Assembly: GCA_021432655.1 (NCBI GenBank)
Contig: MU271271.1
Location: 1 to 64,000 of the forward strand
Length of the DNA stretch: 64,000 bases
From: Atractiella rhizophila
Lineage: Eukaryota
Direction of reading: 5' to 3'
The notes under the pieces were generated by a model. The model was given only the letters and a program-made list of their open reading frames with translations. It had not been told where the DNA came from and did not search any database. The position numbers and the translations under genes were made by a program. Position 1 is the first letter of the stretch. Each line of letters starts with the position of its first letter. Shown piece by piece: positions 1,478 to 58,831 of the stretch.

Positions 1478-3668
1478 GATTTCCCAGACTTTATCTCTTA
1501 GTTCTTTGGGATTGGCCGGTGAGGCGAGCAATGAAGGGGGGATCGGACAAATCGATGGAGTGGCTGACGTGGAAAGGAAAGAGGAAGAGCAGAGGAGAAG
1601 ATCGGCATCCTCTCCAGCTTGACTTCCGCTTCCGTTTGGAAGTGCGTGCCAGCGTCGTCAACTCCGCCTCACCCCTTTATTCTCCGGGTACAAAATGTCC
1701 CTGCTGCTCTCTACTCGAAGTAATAGTGAATATGGCTGACGTTCACGCTGGGCTCCGAGTCTGCCTCCTAAGAACGACTCGAATTAGTTCATTCAATCGA
1801 CGAAATTACGGATGACTGCAAAGTTGGAGGTGATCGAAGGATCGAATCGGTTGCATTATGGAACATTTGCAGAGGGTGCAAGGAAATGGAGGGATGGAAA
1901 TAATAGCTCCGGATCTTTTGTCTAGTGTTCCCAATCACGTATAAGCGAATGCGAGTAAAGTAAAGATATTTGATTGGGGAAAACAGGAAGCAAAACCAAG
2001 AGCCATGTTTACTGTAATAAGTCCGGGCTGGCGGTGAAGCGCACATGTTTGGCACGGCATCCGGAATGAAACGATCAAGATTGGCACCATTGTATCATTG
2101 ATCTCCAACAGATGGTTGATAGCAAAACTCTAGGGCTTACTGAGTGGAAGACTCGCTCCCTCTTCTACGGCATCAGGATCACCAGGTCTCAAATTACCTC
2201 TACTGGACTCATACTACTCATACTACGAGACCGTTATATAAAACCCGCCTCTCCCATCGCACTCCCTCTCACCTCCGTTAAGCATCTGGAACTCTCCGAT
2301 AGGTATCCCCTCCCTTCCACGATCTTGGACTACCCACTGCATCGTCAACTAAAACGTCTCTCAATCAAGCTGGCAGCGTTCTTCGATGCTGAAATTTCAT
2401 CCACCTTACTCGCTGCGCTCGACTTAGCACATCTTGTCTCCCTCACGTTCCTAACCCTTGACGGCGGCGAAAAGTTTCAAACTTCGCTTTTCAGTACTCT
2501 CAAAAATGCAAAAGCCTTATCGCGCGTTGCGGTGTCGTGCTGTGTAGTGTAGTCGTCCGATTTCCCAGACTTTATCTCTTAGTTCTTTGGGATTGGCCGG
2601 TGAGGCGAGCAATGAAGGGGGGATCGGACAAATCGATGGAGTGGCTGACGTGGAAAGGAAAGAGGAAGAGCAGAGGAGAAGATCGGCATCCTCTCCAGCT
2701 TGACTTCCGCTTCCGTTTGGAAGTGCGTGCCAGCGTCGTCAACTCCGCCTCACCCCTTTATTCTCCGGGTACAAAATGTCCCTGCTGCTCTCTACTCGAA
2801 GTAATAGTGAATATGGCTGACGTTCACGCTGGGCTCCGAGTCTGCCTCCTAAGAACGACTCGAATTAGTTCATTCAATCGACGAAATTACGGATGACTGC
2901 AAAGTTGGAGGTGATCGAAGGATCGAATCGGTTGCATTATGGAACATTTGCAGAGGGTGCAAGGAAATGGAGGGATGGAAATAATAGCTCCGGATCTTTT
3001 GTCTAGTGTTCCCAATCACGTATAAGCGAATGCGAGTAAAGTAAAGATATTTGATTGGGGAAAACAGGAAGCAAAACCAAGAGCCATGTTTACTGTAATA
3101 AGTCCGGGCTGGCGGTGAAGCGCACATGTTTGGCACGGCATCCGGAATGAAACGATCAAGATTGGCACCATTGTATCATTGATCTCCAACAGATGGTTGA
3201 TACCAAAACTCTAGGGCTTACTGAGTGGAAGACTCCGCTCCCTCTTCTACGGCATCAGGATCACCAGGTCTCGAATTACCTCTACTGGACTCATACTACT
3301 CATACTACGAGACCGTTATATAAAACCCGCCTCTCCCATCGCACTCCCTCTCACCTCCGTTAAGCATCTGGAACTCTCCGATAGGTATCCCCTCCCTTCC
3401 ACGATCTTGGACTCAGCGGCCTACCCACTGCATCGTCAACTAAAACATCTCTCAATCAAGCTGGCGGCGTTCTTCGATGCTGAAATTTCATCCACCTTAC
3501 TCGCCGCGCTCGACTGAGCACATCTTGTCTCCCTCACGTTCCTAACCCTTGACGGCGGCGAAAAGTTTCAAACTTCGCTTTTCAGTGCTCTCAAAAATGC
3601 AAAAGCCTTACCGCGCGTTGCGGTGTCGTGCTGTGTAGGGTAGTGTAGTCGTCCGATTTCCCAGACTT
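1478..3668 (+). repeat. Tandem duplication, unit ~1081 bp (1478-2558, 2559-3668)
   Basis: Near-identical sequence at offset 1081; ORFs 1789-2055 and 2870-3136 are identical. Confidence 0.95.
2112..2600 (+). pseudogene. C-terminal relic of the F-box-like family
   Basis: LDLAHLVSLTFLTLDGGEKFQTSLFSTLKNAKA matches LDLSHLTYLVQLILDGGEETSNL..FFSTLKNARA of the 16.5-18.2 kb gene. Stops and frameshifts follow. Confidence 0.8.
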
Positions 3669-3815
3669 CATATGCTGGTTCTTTGGTGACTAGCGGGTGT
3701 GAGGGGAGTAAGATTTGCCGGAGAGGATAATGACGCTTGATTCTGTTTTATTCTTTGGAGATTGGTCAGAGGAGGAGGCCCGAAGTGCAAGGAATAAGTG
3801 TGTGTGGGGAGCAAA
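3193..3815 (+). pseudogene. Second relic of the F-box-like family, including the terminal motif
   Basis: Duplicate of the 2112 relic, continuing into DFICWFFGD and LFFGDWSEEEA, with stops and frameshifts. Confidence 0.75.
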
Positions 3816-44347: not shown

Positions 44348-47275
44348 TCAGGTACTCAAAATCTCCAGCTCCTCCTTTGGACCAAAAGGCCTGAAGTGCA
44401 ATTCCTCCAGCAATTTGCTCGGTGGCAAAACTGTCTCCACCTTGTCGATTTGCAACCTGGTGAGGTTGCGCCTGGGATCTTGCAACAGATCAAGGAGGGG
44501 AATGGTGATTCCAGCTTTACGCACAGAGCGAGCGTCAGCTCTCGTGAAAGTTCTGATTATAGAAAACACAGGACGTACCAAGCCCCCGATAAAGCTTCGA
44601 CCCCTCCTTCATCTTCTCGATCCCCGTTCTGACTTCTACCTCCCATCGCCACCTATTGGGCTCCTTGAATCCCTTCTCTTCTCTTTCAATCATCACCCCC
44701 AGTTCGCGAATTTTAATCTGGAAAGCCAAAGCGTACGTAGGAAATGACCATGTCATGTTGGTGAAGGTTCGCCTCCTCACATAGTCCATGAAGATGGGAT
44801 GTATGGCCAACGCTTCGTTGGAGGCATGGTGACATATTCGCATGGATGGGTCATTTGGAGAATAAGAAAAAAAGGGGATATGGAGTCTCATCTTGTCCCT
44901 ACGCCAAACCTTTAGAAACCGTGAACAGAAAGGATGGGACTAACGCCTGTAGGATGGAATGAGCAGCAACCAACCAGTCCCTCTCCTCCACCTCTTCGTC
45001 CGTCAACTGACCAAATGACACGCAAAGCTCCGCAAACCGCCGACGTGGGAATGCTTCAAGCAGTGCATGGGCAGTTTTATCGAGATGTATGAATGTGCGA
45101 CTTCATGGAGATGTTAGAGTTTCACAGCGAGACGCTGAGGGGGTGGAAAAGCAAACCTCTGCCTTGCCCTTTGGAGCTGAACTGTCGACAACATGACCCA
45201 CGGTCGTTCCCACCCTAAAGCCACCCACTGTGAACACGGACCCATGTTTGCCTCAAACAGGCCAACGTACTACGCAAGAACTCGTCCATCCGACTCGAGA
45301 AGATCGACGTCTTGTAGAAGATTTGTACAGCACCCAATCCTACAAAGGCATCCTTCGTTTCCCAAAACTCCTTGTTCTCCGGATTCAGGTTCGCGTTCTT
45401 TTCTAGCTCCAGGAAGGCGGAGGGAGAGGCAGAAGACGGCGGAAGAGGGGTGTGGATGTCGTCTATCGGTACAAAGGCAACTACTTGACATTCCGCATAT
45501 ATTTCCAGGATGAGAGACGAACCTGCTGATATACAGCTCGGCCAATGTGGCACACCAGAGATGTGTCTCTCCATAGTGATCGTGAGCCAAAACATGTGCG
45601 ATCTACCTCAACCCAACCAACCAAAAAGGGTGAGAAGAGGGGATGTATGCAATGAGCAGAAGAGGAAGGAAGTTGACGCCTACCGTTGAATGTATGCCTC
45701 CCTTTCTTCTTCTGGAGCGGTGGGAGGGGGAGGTCGGGCTCGATCCAGTCCAAGTAGTTGACTGTCTTCGTTAGCAGGCAATGGCGGTATGGTGGGAGAA
45801 ACGCACCATAAGCGTACACAAAAGGCGACAAGTACTGCGACCACGTTCCAATTCTCATTAATCTACAGCCAGATATTGGGTGCGATAGCTTCAGCCTCAA
45901 CTGCTTGCTCTGGCTCACGCAGAAAAAGAGAATTGAACGACAGACCTGATAATAAAATACTGTGATCAGGCAGGCCCTCAACACTTCCACGATTTCCTCT
46001 TCCCCCATCGCTGCTCTCTCCTCGATTCGAGAGAAGAACTCGGTCTTCAACTCCCTCGTGATGCTATCGATCAGCTCCTGTCTCCTCCCCCTCCTGTCCA
46101 TCCGCCTCTTCTGCTCGTCCTTCTCCTCTTTCCCATAAAAGTACGTCTCAAAGAACTTCTTATACATCTTTTTGCTGCATGCGTACGACAGAACACACGT
46201 TCCCTCCTCCGTTTCGGGTGTGAGCCGGACGGAGCCGTAGTAGGCGGAGAGCGAGTCGAAGGGGACAGACATGAGCCCGTGTAAGATGATGGCGCGGAGG
46301 AGTAGAGGGTGTCGAAACATGTGAGGGGATACAGAGCCGGAAGCGGTGAAGAACAGAAGTTTGAGAGGAGGGGATGCGAGGAAGGCATTGTAAATCAGGT
46401 AGGATAGGAGGTAAGGGGGACCGAGTGGGCTGTAGGCGGTGAGGGGAAGCAGGGGAGTATGTGATCGCGAGTAGGTATTGACGATTGGGAGGGTAATGTG
46501 AGTGTCGGATACAGGAAGGTGGCAGCAAGACGGTTGGGATGCACAGGGCGAAGCGGAGGATGAAGATGGGACGCTGCGAAGCGCTTGAAGGGCGGATTCG
46601 AGGCTTTCTGTTGACCAATGAAAATCGTTAGCAACGGTGGCAAAGAAACTGGGAATGAAAAAAAAATCTTTGGACTCGTAACTTCTCTTTCCATGTGTTT
46701 GCTGGCGCAGAAATAATCAATGTGCAGCTTAACAAGCGAGCGGACTTTTTCTCGGCAGGCAGGCAGAAGGTATACTTCGTTCCTTTGTGTGAAGAAGGAC
46801 GGAAACATCGTGAGTGCAGAAAAACATTAGCATGGCAAACGGAGTCCCCATCTTGCGAATAGAGAGCAAAGAAATCACTCTTACGCAGAATTTGCGTACA
46901 TTTGTAAATTTATTCTCTTGAGCCTTCTACAAGGAAGAGATAATTTTGAGTTTGGGAGTGAAGAGAAGGACAACGGATGATGCAAAAGGACTCACTAACT
47001 CTCTCCTCCAGCACCTCCAACGTCTCCTCCTCCTCATCCTCCTCACCCCCATCTCCGAGTCCATCACCCTCACCCACCATCCCCTTCGCCTTCGTGGTAC
47101 CAAAGTAGCCTGGCCGCCTCCCCCTCCCTTCCTCATACACACACTCCACCCCATACTTCACACACGCATCGCATGGCGCCGTCCCACTACATCGGACCTT
47201 CTTCTGCCTGCACGGCGCACACGAATGGTTGGGCGACAGGTGCTTGCGTTTTGAGGTAGCTGTCTCGGATGCCAT
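44348..47275 (-). CDS. Zn(II)2Cys6 transcription factor (multi-exon; 3' extent approximate)
   Basis: MASETATSKRKH..SCAPCRQKKVRCSGTAPCDACVKYGVECVY, an acidic tract, then same-strand coding-like exons down to ~44348. Confidence 0.8.
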
Positions 47276-47774
47276 CCTCAGGCTACGTGCCGCCACTCCG
47301 TCTCGTCTTCGTTGTCGTCAAGAGTAGACCTTCAACGGTCAAGCTGACTTAGTGAATCTTCAACGTCAACCGCGGAAGGGAAGACTCCACAGGGATGAAT
47401 AAGAGGTGGTTTATGTGGAACCACGGAGAGCGGCCGCCAAAGGCCTTTGACGTCTGGCGCCGGCCTTCGTTCAACCAGTCGTGGCAGACTACAACTCACA
47501 CACTGTCTGGTTGCGGAACACTTGCACCAGGTCCGGCGTCAGCGGGATCAGGATAGAAAGTGGTTCACCACGACTAATTAGCTAAGCAGAGTCCTGAAGA
47601 GTTCAATCGGTGAGGTCACTGCGCTCTGGGACACCTGATGGTGGGAAGGGCGGAATGAGACAATATCTATATATGCTACATAGGCAGGAGCGTGCTTGAA
47701 TCTGAGTGGTGTCTACGCTACTTTCTATCCGCCTTCCCCTTCTCCCTTCTCTACCTCCGTTCCAGTGCTCGGCC

Positions 47775-48352
47775 TCACAATCCATAAACAAACCTCGCAT
47801 TCTCCTCCCCAACACGCAAGACCTCCGCCGTGGTCCATTTCTTTCTCTCACTTCCTCCTTCCTCCCCAATGGTCTCGTTGAACTTGTTCGCGACGAATTC
47901 AGCCGTCCAAGGTATCATGCTGCTCAAGCTGAACCTCAACCGGGGTATCGTGTGTTTCTTCCCATTCTCATCCGTCACTACGTCCTTGGCTCCCACTTGG
48001 AGCGAGTTGGGGAGCATGTAAGGTCTGTTTCCAAAGCGTCGTTAGCTCTCATTCCTCAGACCCTTAACGGGTTGGCGAAAACGCCTAAGTGGATGAGGGA
48101 AAAGGACTACATACGAGTCTGTCTCGAGCAAGAACCGTGGATGGTCCGGATCCCTTCGTACAAGATGAGCGAGAACGGCGGGTGTGTTCACGTTCGAAGG
48201 ATAGGTAGTTACTCCAGTGATGCCTGTGGGAGCGAAGATGTCATCATGTGATATAGAAAGGTGAAAGAGGACGAACCAATGTATAGGTTAGGGAAGAAGT
48301 CTAGGAGGTTCTTGGCTAGTTCAACGGTGTCGGAGAAACAGTGGACGTGTAT
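47775..48352 (-). pseudogene. Orphan duplicate of the TatD 3' exons
   Basis: IHVHCFSD..YIGITGVTTY..FLLETDSPYM..GEENARFVYGL*, matching 49464-50041, with no first exon of its own. Confidence 0.85.
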
Positions 48353-48767
48353 CTACCTCGTCATCCCCAAACGATCAGCCATCTGGTCAACATCCTCTGT
48401 AACGAAATTAGGCTTCCACGCCTTGAACAAGCATGTCGTCCTTCCCTTCTGAAAGAATGACCAAGTTTCTTTCCTTGCTTATGGCACATGCACGTGCTCA
48501 TGATTAACGAGAATAAGGAGGTGTCAAAGTCAATGAGTCAAGCGGAGATCACAGCTGCGTCGCTGCCCAATGATCCCCCGGTTCCTCCCTGACCCGAAAT
48601 TGCTTGGATCTGCGACACTCATGCTCTTTAACCCAAAAGGAGCGTCGTCTCAGGTAAAGAAAAGCATTGTTTTGAAAAGCATAGCAGGTATCGAGTACCG
48701 AGGACGTTCCACTTCGAGATCCTGTCAGAAAGGAACATAACACCGTGTCACTCGTTCCTGCGGCAGG

Positions 48768-48965
48768 CTACCTCTTCGCCTTCGTGGTACCAAAGTAGCC
48801 TGGCCGCCTCCCCCTCCCTTCCTCATACACACACTCCACCCCATACTTCACACACGCATCGCATGGCGCCGTCCCACTACATCGGACCTTCTTCTGCCTG
48901 CACGGCGCACACGAATGGTTGGGCGACAGGTGCTTGCGTTTTGAGGTAGCTGTCTCGGATGCCAT
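48768..48965 (-). CDS. Truncated Zn2Cys6 duplicate (65 aa, DNA-binding domain only)
   Basis: Intact ATG and six Cys; a stop at the duplication junction after GTTKAKR. Confidence 0.6.
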   Translation of the reverse strand: MASETATSKRKHLSPNHSCAPCRQKKVRCSGTAPCDACVKYGVECVYEEGRGRRPGYFGTTKAKR

Positions 48966-49463
48966 CCTCAGACTGTGTGCCGCCACTCCGTCTCGTCGTC
49001 AACGTTTCAAGAGGAGACTTTCAAAGTTCAAGCTGACTTAGTGAATCTTCAACGTCAACCGCGGAAGGGAAGACTCCACAGGGATGAATAAGAGGTGGTT
49101 TATGTGGAACCACGGAGAGCGGCCGCCAAAGGCCTTTGACATCTGGCGCCGGCCTTCGTTCAACAAGTCGTGGCAGACTACAACTCACACACTGTCTGGT
49201 TGCGGAACACTTGCACCAGGTCCGGCGTCAGCGGGATCAGGATAGAAAGTGGTTCACCACGGCTAATTAGCTAAGCAGAGTCCTGAAGAGTTCAATCGGT
49301 GAGGTCACTGCGCTCTGGGACACCTGATGGTGGGAAGGGCGGAATGAGACAATATCTATATATGCTACATAGGCAGGAGCGTGCTTGAATCTGAGTGGTG
49401 TCTACGCTACTTTCTATCCGCCTTCCCCTTCTCCCTTCTCTACCTCCGTTCCAGTGCTCGGCC

Positions 49464-52400
49464 TCACAATCCATAAACAAACCTCGCATTCTCCTCCCCA
49501 ACACGCAAGACCTCCGCCGTGGTCCATTTCTTTCTCTCACTTCCTCCTTCCTCCCCAATGGTCTCGTTGAACTTGTTCGCGACGAATTCAGCCGTCCAAG
49601 GTATCATGCTGCTCAAGCTGAACCTCAACCGGGGTATCGTGTGTTTCTTCCCATTCTCATCCGTCACTACGTCCTTGGCTCCCACTTGGAGCGAGTTGGG
49701 GAGCATGTAAGGTCTGTTTCCAAAGCGTCGTTAGCTCTCATTCCTCAGACCCTTAACGGGTTGGCGAAAACGCCTAAGTGGATGAGGGAAAAGGACTACA
49801 TACGAGTCTGTCTCGAGCAAGAACCGTGGATGGTCCGGATCCCTTCGTACAAGATGAGCGAGAACGGCGGGTGTGTTCACGTTCGAAGGATAGGTAGTTA
49901 CTCCAGTGATGCCTGTGGGAGCGAAGATGTCATCATGTGATATAGAAAGGTGAAAGAGGACGAACCAATGTATAGGTTAGGGAAGAAGTCTAGGAGGTTC
50001 TTGGCTAGTTCAACGGTGTCGGAGAAACAGTGGACGTGTATCTACCTCGTCATCCCCAAACGATCAGCCATCTGGTCAACATCCTCTGTAACGAAATTAG
50101 GCTTCCACGCCTTGAACAAGCATGTCGTCCTTCCCTTCTGAAAGAATGACCAAGTTTCTTTCCTTGCTTATGGCACATGCACGTGCTCATGATTAACGAG
50201 AATAAGGAGGTGTCAAAGTCAATGAGTCAAGCGGAGATCACAGCTGCGTCGCTGCCCAATGATCCCCCGGTTCCTCCCTGACCCGAAATTGCTTGGATCT
50301 GCGACACTCATGCTCTTTAACCCAAAAGGAGCGTCGTCTCAGGTAAAGAAAAGCATTGTTTTAAAAAGCATAGCAGGTATCGAGTACCGAGGACGTTCCA
50401 CTTCGAGATCCTGTCAGAAAGGAACATAACACCGTGTCACTCGTTCCTGCGGCAGGCTTACAGCATCCGCAATCACTGCCAACCCAGACTTTATGAAAAG
50501 TAAATGAAATTCTTTGCAAACCCAGGATATCATAGTTGCAAGGGGATTGAGAGGGACTCGCTTGCTCCATAGCTCCGTTACGAGCTCGTCATACTCTCAA
50601 GAATCCGAAGCAATGACCCTCTCCAGGCACCAAACGCATTCGCATTCCAACGAGCTTCACCACCTCAACAAATACCTACCACGTCAGCGATCGGTTGAAG
50701 GAAAATGCACGCCGCGTTCTCCACAGAGAGGTCCAAAGAGAAAGAACCATGGTTACGGTCTGACGTTCGTTCCTTTCGTACTTCAATCCAGCAAATTGTA
50801 CTTCTATTTCTGTAGACACAATATGGACAGTGGCAGCGACAGAAAGAATGCACAGCAAAAGTCATGCGAGCGGGCGAAGGCCATAGAGCGTAAGACAAAC
50901 GAAAGCATGAGAGGCCAGGTCTACATGGCTGGAGAGGGACAGAAACTTGGATCGATTGTCCTCCAGGCATCTCTCTCCATCTTGCACATGCACACGAGAG
51001 GAGTCTATGTCTCAATGAACGAAAGGAAAGGCATAAAGGCCTCACGATCAATCCGTCGCAGTGCCCCCTCCCTCTCCTCGCTCCGAATTCTTCGAGACGG
51101 GATCGTCTGGCATTCTGCCAACATCATTGCCAACGCATCTTTGATAGGTGTCCCTGTAGAAAGCAGAATGTGGCAGAGAGACTAAGTGACGGCGCGACAG
51201 GCCTCTCTCGTGTTTTGCGAGGATAGTACATTTCCCGCTTCTATAGAACGATGGGCGAGGCGCTTAAGATGCGAGATAGAATTGGGCATGCCGTTATGCT
51301 TTCGCGCCTGCGTAACAGCACAACGTCTTCATTGGGACTGTATGGCTGGTAACGATGAAGAGAAGATGCGAGGAGGAGAACTCAGCATCCTCTCTTCACC
51401 GTCCAACCTCCTCAAAGGCGAGAGAAGACATTCAAAACAAGTTCCACCACAAACCCCACCACATAAAGCAAAAGACGCAACTCACCCGCCTCTCCCTATC
51501 CTCCCCCAACTCCTCCCTCAAAATCCTCCAAACATCCACATCCGCCTCCCTCGTATGCACCGTCAGTGCCTTCCCCCCCACCCCCTCCCCCTCCGCCTCC
51601 CTCAAAACGCGGAGCTGCCTCCTCAACACCTCCCTCTGCACCTCTCTCGGCGAATTATCATAATGATAATCCAAACCTATCTCGCCCAACGACACGCACT
51701 GCGGGTGCGCGAGGTGCTTCACTATCTCGTTGTGGATATTGTCGCTGTAGAGCGACGCCTCGTGTGGGTGCACACCGATCGTGTACCGGTATGCGACGCC
51801 GCCGAGGGTCCCGGAGGGAAGGAGAAGCGAGGGGAGGTATTGGTATTCGGCGGGCTCGCACCAGACGTCGATGATGTGGGAGACGCCGGAGGGGGCGTAG
51901 TAGGTCGCGAGGAGGGAGGAGGGGGTGTGGTCGTATTCTTTCTTTTTCTCCTCTTTCTCGTTAGTGGGAGAGAGGTGGTTGGTGGAGGTGGAGGTGGTGG
52001 TGAGAGAGGAGGCGGAGGAGGAGAGGGTGGAGAGGAGATGCATGTGCGTATCTATTATTCGAGGACGCCAGGGCTCTACTTCCTCACCCATAAAGTCAGG
52101 TGCAGGCGTCGAATACACATCTCCCTCCGCATTCCCATTCGCATCTCCATTAGAGCTCCGAAGAAGAGAAAACGAGCTGATAGTATTCCCGCCACTCTTC
52201 GAAACCACAGAGATCGGAGGAGCGTTCGGATGAAAAGAAGGCAAAAGAGGATCCGAAGACTGATACGGATACCTGAGCAAAAAAGACTCCGGACTCCTCT
52301 TCAGCACCGTCTTCCTCTTCTTCCCCTGGCTCTGACCATTCTGATTTCGATTCCGATTCCGATCCTGATTCCGATCCTGATGATGCTTAGGCTTGTGGTC

Positions 52401-54722: not shown

Positions 54723-56176
54723 ATGAAATTTTCTGTTCTTGCACTCTCTTTTATCCTCCCACTCACTCTCTCAGCATCTGTTATCGGAGTTCCAGAAGCC
54801 CACAGAGGCCACAGAGGACATTGTGAGCATCCTCATTCGTCCCGTCCTTCCTTCTAATCCATGGACTAGCTCATACCACGACCGTCGCCAGCGGCGCTGT
54901 CACGACTACAACAAACACCAAACCTGCCTCTGGATCGGTAATCCCGACTGTCACCGCGTCTGTCTGTACGCCGTCTCTTTACTCTTAATTATCCTTCTTT
55001 CTGATGAATTCGTAAGCTGGGCCGGTTCATGTCACGACCGCTACCGCTAGTGGTGCTGTGACAAGTCAGACAGGGACCAAACGAGCCTCTGCATCCGTAA
55101 TCTCGACCCGAACGGCATCTGTTTGTAAGCCCCCACCATGCTCTCATCTCCTTGTTTTCTAATCCATCCATAAGCTGGACCGGTACATGTCACGACCGCT
55201 ACAGCTAGTGGTACTGTCACAAGGAAGACGGGGACCAAGCGAGCCTCAGGATCCGTGGTTTCGACTGGAATTGCGTCTGGTAGTGCGCACACTCCCTATT
55301 ATTCACTTTCGCTCTTTCTAACGCATCGACAAGCTGGACCTGTTCATGTCACGACGGTCACCGCCAGCGGTGCTGTGACAAGTCAGACAGGGACCAAACG
55401 GGCCTCTGCATCCGTAATCTCGACCCGAACGGCATTTGTTTGTACGCCTTTCCTTTGCCCTTCCACAACCTTTTTCTAATGCATCGACAAGCTGGGCCAG
55501 TTCATGTCACGACCGCTACCGCTAGTGGTGCTGTGACAAGTCAGACAGGGACCAAACGAGCCTCTGGATCCGTGGTCTCGACTAGAATTGCGTCTGGTAG
55601 TGCGCACACTCATTGTTATTCACTTTCGCTCTTTCTAACGCATCGACAAGCTGGACCTGTTCATGTCACGACTGCTACCGCCAGTGGTGGTGTGACAAGT
55701 CAGACAGGGACCAAACGAGCCTCTGGATCTATAATATCGACCCGTACGGCGTCTATTTGTGCGCCTCTCCTTGTTCTTAATGTGGTTATGTTCTAAACGG
55801 TAGATAAGCTGGACCAGTTCATGTTACACTGACAGCGGTGCTGTCACTACCAAAACAGGAACCAAACCGGTTTCCGGAACGTCGATTTCAAGTGGAAGCA
55901 TTGTCTGTATGCTCTTCCCACTTCCCTATCCTATCTCTGACCTTTGATCAAAGCTGGACCTGTTCGAGCTACCACCTCTACACTTAAGAAGTTAACGACG
56001 ACAAATACCGTGAGCCGATCTCATGCTATTCTGCCTAGCGGGGGCATAGTCAGTACGTCTTCTCCCATTTAAGGTATCCCGGTACTGAACCTTCTGACGC
56101 TCTCTCAGCTCGTTCTGGATTCACGTCTATCTTCGTTTCCAGTCCTGCTAGTGCAGCCTCAACTGCTCAAGTTTGA
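54723..56176 (+). CDS. Secreted Ser/Thr-rich repeat protein, one exon per 36-aa repeat, KR in each core repeat
   Basis: Signal MKFSVLALSFILPLTLSA. Exons 54723-54822, 54870-54965, then five 108-nt exons (55017, 55175, 55334, 55492, 55651) and a 98-nt exon 55809-55906. Introns are phase-1 GT-AG of 47-51 nt. The 3' end is approximate. Confidence 0.85.
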
Positions 56177-56574
56177 AGAAGGGGTGTTTATATGGATACT
56201 AACTGCGCTACAGGAGATAAAGATTCACTTGTTTCGGCATTCCTCGATTTCGGAATCTATATGCTCAATGGACATACTACAATTTATTATCGTGAAACTC
56301 AGGCAATGTCTTCCCTTAGAAGCGCTTTCAAAATCAAATTCTAAAACTTTCCCAATACTCAAATCTTGCGCCAAATCTTGCGCCAACCTTGCACGTGTTG
56401 GAGAAATGTGGGAGTGGTCTGCCTTCGGACAATTATTATTTTAGAGTTTGGCGCGGTTATCATTTTGCCTCCAACGAAGAACGAAGAAGAACAACTCCTC
56501 TACCATTAACGCCTCACCAGTTCCACTGCCAAAGCTACGCATTGTAGCGACAGTTTTCACCGGATCATAATAAC

Positions 56575-57617
56575 ATGCCCCCGTCAACCTCTGAACTTGA
56601 AGTTCCTGCTCCTTCCATGATCAACCGAAGTTCTCTCCCCACCTCTATAGTATCTCAACTTGAAGATGAGTTGCTTCCGTGGCCTGCGCTGGTAGCATTC
56701 GATCTGGAGTAAGTCCAGCCTTTGGTCTTATTCNNNNNNNNNNNNNNNNNNNNNNNNNNNNNNNNNNNNNNNNNNNNNNNNNNNNNNNNNNNNNNNNNGC
56801 TCACACATTGAACCCTCACAACATCGGTAAACTAAAGGGTCGACACGCACGTGTATCCGCCAATCAAACGTCCATCCCCTACAACTCTCAATAAGGTGGT
56901 TGACAAAAGGGGCTACGACTTCTCGCTCTACCCAGACGTTCCTGCTATTCTCTCGTTCCTACGGTCCAGGAAAATAATGGTTGCCGCGTGCAGTCGGACC
57001 TCAGCGCCTCCAGCGTGAGCTATCCGCTTCTTTGCTTGTGTCAAAACCTCAAGCGCGGTGTTTACTCTGCCAATCCAGAGCAAGACAAGCATTGAAAGAG
57101 CTCCTCATCCCCGTTTCCTCCTTCGAAGAGGGAAAAGCAGGTGAAGGAATGACGGAGAGCGCCATCAGCATGTTCGATCAGTTAGAGATATACCCAGGTC
57201 CGTAACTCTCCTCTTTCTATTCCTGAACTGTCTCATTGATGTGACCGCGGGGACAAGGAAGCAAAAAGGCTCATTTCCGGGCATTGCATGAGAAGCGTGG
57301 CGTAAGCTATGACGATATGGTACATTTCATCCTTCGATATTCTCCCTCAAAGGCTGAATTTTCGTGACGTCGAATGTCCTAGTTGTTCTTCGACGATGAA
57401 TACCGCAATTCAGAAGTGAGCAAGCTCGGCGTCACATTCTGCTTGGTTGATGAAGACATCGGTGAGTGCCCGCATCTCATCTTGCACGAAGATACATGCT
57501 AATTTCATTTTACTCTGTTCCGCTACGGCCTGCGTCACAGGCGTGGATTGGGCGACATTCGAGAAGGGTTTGGATCTTTGGAGGAAAAGTAGAGCAATGT
57601 ATGGCGATGGACACTAA
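56575..57617 (+). CDS. MDP1: Magnesium-dependent phosphatase 1 (HAD-IIIC)
   Basis: LVAFDL(D), WVDTHV, LYPDVPAIL..ACSRTSAP, QLEIYPGSKKAHF, MLFFDDEYRN..LGVTF. One small exon probably lies in the N gap. Confidence 0.88.
56734..56798. other. Assembly gap (65 N)
   Basis: Run of n characters. Confidence 1.
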
Positions 57618-57983: not shown

Positions 57984-58831
57984 TTAAGCATCACTCGGAG
58001 CGGCAGGTGCCCATTCGCTGGCAGTTTCCGTCACATTATAACTGAAACCAGCGGTAGGCAGAGCAGTTTCCGTCACGTCGTAGTAGCTTGTGCTAGTAAT
58101 ATTGGGCAGCGGAACCTCCGTGAAGGTGACACTGGGATAGAAGGTGAAGGAAGATGCATTCGCGACAGGGAGAACGGTCACGCAGGACGGAAAGGCAGTT
58201 GCGACACCACTCGCAATTGTGCTCGTAACAGTGGGGTAGTAAGTCGTCGCATTCACGACGTAGGAAGTGTAGGTGACGTCGTAGAATGACGAAGCGGTGT
58301 AGGTCTCGGAGACATTGTAGAGGGACGTGGAAGCGTATGTCTCAGTGACGTTGTAGAAAGATGAAGGAGTGTAAGACTCGGTAATGTTGTAGTCTTGCCC
58401 AAGAAGCCCAATAAAATTTTGCAAAGAAGAGAAAAAGAAAAGAAATTTACCTGTGTGGTTCGCGAATGGCTCGTTCGTGGGAACAAGGAGCGGAAGCCAA
58501 GTGGCTGTTGGAACATAGCAGACAACGCCGCTGGCAGTAGCGGTCGCCTGGTAATAGCTTGTCACAGTAATATTTCCTTGGGCGGTCGCAGTTGGAATTG
58601 CGCCATTGAAGAAGATGGAGGTGAAGTTGCCAGACGGTTCGGCTGTTTTCTTGATTAATCCGATGTTGCTTCAGGGAGAAGAGAGTGCTTACGACCTGGG
58701 CCTGCATTCAGGCTCTCGAAAACCGCAGTCACGTTCTCTAAGACAGGTCCTGGAGCTGTATTGACGAACGCCTGAGGGAGCGCATGGACAACCGACAGGA
58801 AGAATGAAAGAGCAGGGACGTTCAACTTCAT
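57984..58831 (-). CDS. Secreted glycoprotein with Y-N/D-V-T-E-T repeats
   Basis: Signal MKLNVPALSFFLSVVHA (ATG 58831), two short introns, repeats YNITESY/YNVTETY/YNVSETY/YDVTYT and many N-x-T/S sequons. Confidence 0.75.

Follow-up and report, generated by a model that had tools for sequence, protein, structure and literature searches.

A repeat gene of Atractiella rhizophila with one core repeat per exon, predicted to encode a secreted protein and differing in repeat number between two copies

Secreted repeat proteins and candidate KEPs, in which a signal peptide precedes repeats carrying KR sites for the protease Kex2, are common in fungi. The stretch of DNA analysed here (the window, 64,000 nucleotides of contig MU271271.1 of Atractiella rhizophila) contains a real, unlisted gene for a repeat protein, made up of ten exons at 54723–56176 with its ATG at 54723, as established by splice-signal mapping and translation. 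Atractiella rhizophila is a pucciniomycete, which we take to be a root endophyte. An earlier note on the sequence had put the gene forward as a candidate Kex2-processed peptide precursor. The reading that we place first, and hold with evenly balanced confidence, is a cationic, O-mannosylated orphan protein of the hyphal surface that changes in length through the gain and loss of exon–intron cassettes and whose KR sites are cut partly or not at all. We infer its glycosylation, cleavage and location from the sequence.

Results

Gene structure and transcripts

A tandem array occupies 55014–55824, with TRF scores of 837–1160 at periods of 158, 159 and 317, far above chance. Translation matched the exon 1 leader given in the earlier note, the degenerate repeat with KP was seen in exon 2, and exons 3–7 agree with the five 36-aa core repeats that it described, each a single symmetric phase-1 exon with one KR (Table 1). 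The gene had also been said to escape the ORF track, and indeed the ORF list covers it by a 105-aa piece only. Phase 1 at both ends is shared by exons 2–7. All nine window introns run from GT to AG over 47–56 nt, and in eight of them a CTRAY branch lies 11–13 nt upstream of the AG. The KR occupies codons 21–22 of the 35 whole codons in the core exons; therefore, the coding sequence of any released peptide would be split between the halves of two exons.

Table 1. Exons of the repeat gene and its atypical intron in the window copy, with the joints seen in contigs of run X2
Feature	Position	Strand	Description
Exon 1	54723..54822	+	Predicted signal peptide (about residues 1–18) and short His/Arg-rich leader; intron 1 joint 54822/54870
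Exon 2	54870..54965	+	Degenerate repeat, 96 nt, phase 1-1, KP at the dibasic position; joint 54965/55017
Exon 3	55017..55124	+	Core repeat 1, 108 nt, KR (KQ in the sister copy); joint 55124/55175
Exon 4	55175..55282	+	Core repeat 2, 108 nt, KR plus an extra RK
Exon 5	55334..55441	+	Core repeat 3, 108 nt, KR; junctions from splice signals
Exon 6	55492..55599	+	Core repeat 4, 108 nt, KR; junctions from splice signals
Exon 7	55651..55758	+	Core repeat 5, 108 nt, KR; joint 55758/55809 (sister-type contig)
Intron 7	55759..55808	+	CTAAA instead of a CTRAY branch; extra upstream AG
Exon 8	55809..55906	+	Degenerate KP repeat, 98 nt, frameshift; joint 55906/55954
Exon 9	55954..56052	+	Distant repeat, 99 nt; premature stop of the fully spliced window copy at 55993–55995; joints 55906/55954 and 56052/56109
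Exon 10, coding part	56109..56176	+	Extends as far as the stop; lacks a hydrophobic GPI or membrane tail

A spliced transcript, which the earlier note had proposed to look for by junction mapping, was found: contigs from run X2 skip six of the nine introns at their exact GT..AG positions. The record of this run gives no library type, and its contigs were taken as spliced RNA because neither of the two DNA matches in the genome is an intronless copy. Letters of the sister haplotype are present in several of the contigs that span the six joints. Introns 4–6 have no joint at their own coordinates in this run, and the junctions of exons 5 and 6 follow from splice signals. Contigs of both haplotypes are continuous over 56109–56267; a further intron at 56171–56213 (GT, CTAAC branch and CAG, over the stop codon) was rejected, as contigs of both haplotypes are unspliced there. 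From run X1, a single exact match of 172 nt was obtained at the 5' end; it contains no joint and is uninformative on splicing. Introns 4 (55283–55333) and 6 (55600–55650) are 51 nt long and stop-free, so that their retention would keep the frame; this property is not conserved, the matching sister intron measuring 49 nt.

Two copies with different repeat numbers

Searches of the organism's own genome found two loci only, the window locus on contig C92 and a sister copy on C123. The latter contig aligns collinearly with the window, at 77–97% identity, starting near 40.9 kb and continuing past 64 kb, and would most simply be the other haplotype. The sister copy is intact, with eight exons, 263 aa and three core repeats reading KQ, KR and KR, against five core repeats in the window. 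Its middle repeat is a mosaic, with the first third nearest to window exon 5 and the last third nearest to exons 4 and 6, a pattern expected under unequal exchange; a cassette tree among the repeat units resolves no direction of change. Both copies are transcribed and spliced at intron 9, as seen in contigs with 0 and 10 differences to the window, and the depths of their contigs over the last exon, 4.1 and 9.4, are insufficient for ranking expression.

Exon skipping had been suggested as a way of altering the repeat number in frame. The repeat number does vary, five versus three, between the DNA copies, but two joints that resemble skips were rejected as evidence of skipping: 55124/55336 fits the junction of sister exons 3 and 4 (with 0 and 2 mismatches over 38 nt), and 55282/55492 fits that of sister exons 4 and 5 equally well at either of two places. 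Because both fit ordinary junctions of the shorter copy equally well or better, the change in repeat number is seen at the level of DNA and not of splicing.

Frameshift in exon 8

Compared with the sister copy (105 nt) and an X2 contig, exon 8 of the window is 7 nt short; the contig carries a 7-nt insertion behind 55826 relative to the window. The open frame to 56176 assumed earlier is consequently lost when all ten exons are spliced, which gives 291 aa and a stop lying 57 nt before the last junction. Of the flanking KP repeats noted earlier, that in exon 2 stands, whereas the downstream one is out of frame in the fully spliced window copy. Skipping of exon 8 restores an in-frame protein of 300 aa that ends at 56174–56176, and the predicted product of the window copy is C-terminally frameshifted unless this exon is skipped. 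Intron 7 is the sole intron among 16 in both copies that has no CTRAY branch, and the missing branch would suit exon 8 skipping. X2 contigs contain no joint that skips exon 8; a window-type contig over exon 8 is also absent from them, so they are uninformative on skipping. The 7-nt loss may also be an assembly error. Rescue of the frame through the extra AG in intron 7 was tried and rejected, as it yields 254 aa and then a stop.

Conservation and selection

The five core units of the window agree in 24 of 35 columns and in 17 of 34 adjacent pairs; when all eight core units of both copies are taken together, 23 of 35 columns stay invariant, and the P1 Arg varies. KR occurs in seven of the eight, with KQ in one sister unit, and KP in all four flanking units. 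On these alignments, KR is no better kept than the remaining repeat columns. In 20000 shuffles of one unit, KR or RR arose by chance in 11%, and one chance dipeptide copied with the cassette therefore explains the KR pattern; the five KRs go back to a single amplified cassette and do not count as separate lines of evidence. Conservation of KR in relatives, proposed earlier as a check, turned out weak to negative in the only other copy available, which has two KR and one KQ in three core repeats.

Over the 163 synonymous and 398 non-synonymous sites of six allelic exon pairs, we counted 15 and 11 differences, respectively (pN/pS 0.30, Fisher p = 0.003), a comparison that omits exon 8 and the middle repeats as out of frame or without a one-to-one partner. 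Neighbouring exons, with few differences, give pN/pS values of 0–0.56, and the repeat gene falls within that range. Repeat pairs, which are non-independent, give a dN/dS of 0.22. These values argue for constraint by purifying selection on the predicted protein; they do not discriminate between the hypotheses considered below.

Secretion, composition and glycosylation

Hydropathy and inspection by eye predict an N-terminal signal peptide and no membrane segment: in the in-frame forms, the hydropathy peak of 2.31 is confined to the first 25 residues, and values elsewhere do not exceed 1.26. Exon 1 holds this maximum (over 11 residues) and has no amino-acid difference to the sister copy. No GPI signal or membrane helix was found at the C-terminus, where the last 30 residues reach an 11-residue hydropathy of 1.1, and the Pir motifs DGQ and QFQFD are absent from both translations. 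The mature protein has 34–39% S+T and no Cys, and the in-frame forms contain 37–39% S+T and 20–24 K+R against one acidic residue and no N-glycan sequon. Each 34-residue segment between KR sites holds 14–15 S/T and 9–11 A+V with no L or D; along the intact copy, the S/T fraction ranges from 0.24 to 0.48 in 21-residue windows.

According to the available text of PMC4824858, O-mannosylation in yeast favours a context of 20–50% S/T, with Thr over Ser, Ala/Val near and little Leu/Asp. PMT genes are present in the genome, and together with the composition they agree with what this source describes for O-mannosylated S/T-rich secreted proteins. The alternative of an uncleaved O-glycosylated mucin, raised in the earlier note, fits at least as well as a KEP does. 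O-mannosylation near basic sites in S/T-rich regions is reported to reduce cleavage by yeast Yps1 (PMC4353680, available text), and such glycan shielding might, as we infer, carry over to Kex2 here.

Kex2 sites and candidate processing

The counting rules of PMC6339444 and PMC7329392, as given in their available text, call for at least four fragments on KR/RR cutting and at least three similar repeats between dibasic sites. Frameshifted or not, the window copy has five KR and four 36-aa internal fragments (70, 36, 36, 36, 36 and 59 aa in order) and would be classed as a KEP candidate. The sister copy falls short of both rules, as KR at 123 and 159 and KK at 220 leave KR fragments of 106, 36 and 103 aa. 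The four similar peptides of about 34 aa predicted earlier are therefore obtained in silico from the window copy, whereas the sister copy would release one internal peptide.

P1 Arg and P2 Lys are present at the KR sites, and P4 is Gly at all seven; Kex2 favours an aliphatic P4 (PMC8528282, in part). An (I/V)-S-T-R motif matching the extended Kex2 rule occurs in seven of eight core units, and KR or (I/V)STR in all eight. Four S/T lie within P6–P4' at each KR. None of the sites is followed by the XA/XP dipeptides of STE13, the predicted peptides beginning with ASAS or ASGS. Kexin P-domain matches were found on three contigs (C155, C68 and C992), and the two that were read have a membrane segment and, by eye, the motifs of a subtilase. 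C155 and C992, whose P-domain scores are equal, probably represent the two haplotypes; by these matches, the genome is predicted to encode two distinct kexin paralogues. In the parts of the literature available, some KEPs are cut at monobasic sites (PMC9769878), and 7878 KEPs have been catalogued in 1345 of 1461 strains, 2560 of them stand-alone (PMC7329392).

With regard to a dikaritin precursor, PF11807 (DUF3328/UstYa) had no match in the genome, and the control was likewise without any match. The repeats hold no Tyr. No tailoring cluster was seen around the repeat gene: by Pfam, the neighbours are TatD, Zn2Cys6, CBM1 and L38e (strong matches in 4 of 12 pieces), and by its motifs a nearby gene presumably encodes a Mg-dependent phosphatase. 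The L38e exon shows 100% identity to proteins assigned to Atractiella rhizophila. A 65-base N gap at 56734–56798 falls in the first intron region of this downstream phosphatase-like gene.

Searches for homologues

For the homologue searches we used one exon, or two exons together with an in-frame intron, as the query; such queries are short and of low complexity, and blanks from them are accordingly weak. Word-based protein searches returned 2437 candidates (185–2000 aa), none at E <= 0.01, and 311 candidates (93–298 aa), none at E <= 10. A profile search of 1.84 billion representatives gave one match, a 2200-aa bacterial-type repeat protein, which was rejected as compositional and without a matched stretch. 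Among metagenome contigs, 492 pattern matches were obtained and none was confirmed, and a second search gave none. The ESM Atlas (no usable match), Pfam (three gene pieces) and PDB sequences yielded no homologue, and the single Rfam match (E 0.99) was attributed to chance. With these short, low-complexity exon queries, the gene appears to be an orphan, for which we found no homologue outside its own genome.

In our literature searches, nothing was found on fungal secreted proteins with one repeat per exon, on secreted proteins of Atractiellomycetes or on SP7 splicing together with Kex2. The genus name and the repeat motif are absent from the supplementary files of PMC6339444 and PMC7329392 that were available, in which the full KEP tables may be missing.

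Other features of the window

On the minus strand, 58831–57985 holds a signal-peptide gene for an S/T-rich protein of about 246 aa with two predicted introns. Its product is acidic, has 11 N-glycan sequons and no dibasic site, and carries 12-aa repeats at 58281–58381. Paralogy of this neighbour with the repeat gene was rejected, as 551 of 2000 shuffles score equally high. A head-to-tail duplication of 1689 bp (47081–48769 and 48771–50458, 98.9% identity), both copies of which match one C123 stretch, is either recent or an assembly artefact. Another tandem duplication, of about 1.15 kb (1477–2612 and 2558–3711, 96.9%), has related pieces at 13.5–15.9 kb and 42.1–42.6 kb and looks like mobile-element debris. 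A dispersed paralogue family at 67–78% DNA identity lies at 16.4–18.2, 39.2–40.9, 61.7–62.0 and 63.4–64.0 kb and at 24–30 kb of C123; its 468-aa member has no Pfam match and is F-box/LRR-like by eye only.

Discussion

In the explanation to which we give about half of our confidence, the signal peptide would bring the protein into the ER, and PMT enzymes would O-mannosylate it densely. The outcome would be an extended, positively charged glycoprotein, non-covalently held on the hyphal wall or matrix and serving in coating or adhesion. Its length would shift through unequal exchange among 158–159-bp exon+intron cassettes, an exchange that stays in frame because each exon is in phase 1-1. KR would be a feature of one amplified cassette, with partial clipping by Kex2 possible, and selection has probably not acted to release several identical peptides. 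Uncleaved repeat proteins of fungal surfaces are typically polymorphic in length (PMC5923269, available text). Several points weigh against such a surface protein. KR is found in nearly all core units and KR or (I/V)STR in every one, with two kexin paralogues predicted; nothing was detected that would account for wall retention, be it a GPI signal, a membrane segment or a Pir motif. The frameshift spares all five KR repeats, as expected if it fell in the dispensable tail of a peptide precursor, and the dN/dS of the repeats seems tight for a plain spacer. Moreover, glycosylation and Kex2 cleavage are found together in yeast Pir proteins (PMC8975586, in part).

A true KEP is a serious competitor, although we regard it as clearly less probable. 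Kex2 would then cleave behind every KR and perhaps behind I/V-S-T-R as well, Kex1 would trim, and linear 34-aa peptides, probably O-mannosylated, would be the active products; the window copy would give four and the sister copy one, with cassette number setting the dose. The window copy passes the published counts (PMC6339444, PMC7329392), its unit length matches the Rep1/Hum3 repeats of 31–55 aa (PMC4617103), monobasic cleavage is known for some KEPs (PMC9769878), each according to the available text, kexins are encoded in the genome, and the frameshift lies downstream of every KR site. However, the intact sister copy, with two KR and one KK, falls short on both counts, and one unit has changed from KR to KQ. 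The Gly at P4, the lack of XA/XP after KR and the dense S/T around the site also speak against it, as does the lack of amphipathicity: in five of five peptides, the hydrophobic moments at 100 and 170 degrees were not above those of 500 shuffles, of which 116–497 reached the observed value.

We consider it rather doubtful, though worth stating, that the gene is a peptide precursor in the making. A mucin-like KP cassette would have gained KR and then, as an exon+intron unit, have been amplified; of the two nuclei, one would now hold a five-site form, its C-terminal tail shed by frameshift, and the other a two-site, tailed form. Were this so, the Kex2 output, possibly of O-mannosylated peptides and possibly gated by glycosylation, would be set by cassette number.

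A self-assembling beta-rich protein or peptide, such as a functional amyloid or beta-solenoid that coats hyphae in the manner of Rep1, cut or uncut, seems unlikely. The V/T/I/S-rich unit with its Gly and Pro breaks and the purifying selection on it would suit such a coat; an AlphaFold2 model of two repeats with an intron-coded linker consists mostly of strands, but its pLDDT of 40 makes it uninformative and of little weight. Against stacking, the hydrophobic moments do not exceed those of shuffles, the mean beta propensity is just 1.04–1.06, and heavy O-mannosylation would hinder it. Decay of a gene without current function is very improbable: the frameshift, the weakened branch point of the window copy and the blank homologue searches with short exon queries would agree with it, but the sister copy is intact, both copies are transcribed and spliced at intron 9, and the allelic pN/pS of 0.30 (p = 0.003, within the range of neighbouring exons) counts against it.

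Comparison with known systems, drawn from the portions of the cited papers available, helps to place a putative O-mannosylated surface protein of this kind. The gene shares the signal peptide and near-identical KR repeats of KEPs, among which orphan status is frequent (PMC6339444, PMC7329392, PMC9769878); unlike them, only one of its two copies follows the counting rules, its composition is mucin-like with Gly at P4 and no STE13 dipeptide, and its cleavage is predicted. Rep1, Hum3 and Rsp1 of Ustilago maydis are likewise secreted basidiomycete proteins with repeats of about 36 aa and dibasic sites (PMC4617103, PMC3133707), which makes a surface role plausible here. Compared by description, the Rep1/Hum3 repeats are amphipathic and the present ones are not; there are five or three core units here versus 12–17 in that group, and no hydrophobin domain. 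Rsp3 of U. maydis and yeast Flo1-type adhesins show allelic repeat numbers arising by deletion and expansion, and mosaic repeats, as here, and Rsp3 coats hyphae without a GPI anchor, a tail also absent here (PMC5923269). In contrast to these proteins, the present one has no Cys-rich or lectin domain, and it expands by whole exon+intron cassettes. Yeast Pir proteins are secreted, O-mannosylated and repeated and carry a Kex2 site (PMC8975586); O-mannosylation is predicted here, yet Pir proteins have one Kex2 site ahead of the repeats instead of one per core repeat, and neither DGQ/QFQFD nor a Cys domain occurs here. SP7 of Rhizophagus irregularis, too, is secreted, contains repeats, exists in several lengths and comes from a fungus associated with roots (PMC4617103), but its variants come from differential splicing, whereas the variation here is seen between DNA copies.

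About one-third of catalogued KEPs lack a homologue (PMC7329392, available text), so one further orphan is unsurprising. The two copies of a single gene can receive opposite KEP calls when KR sites are counted, which advises caution in genome mining. The natural pair described here, with five versus two sites and a tail lost versus kept, would suit testing whether O-mannosylation blocks Kex2, and would equally suit asking how repeat precursors arise from surface-protein repeats.
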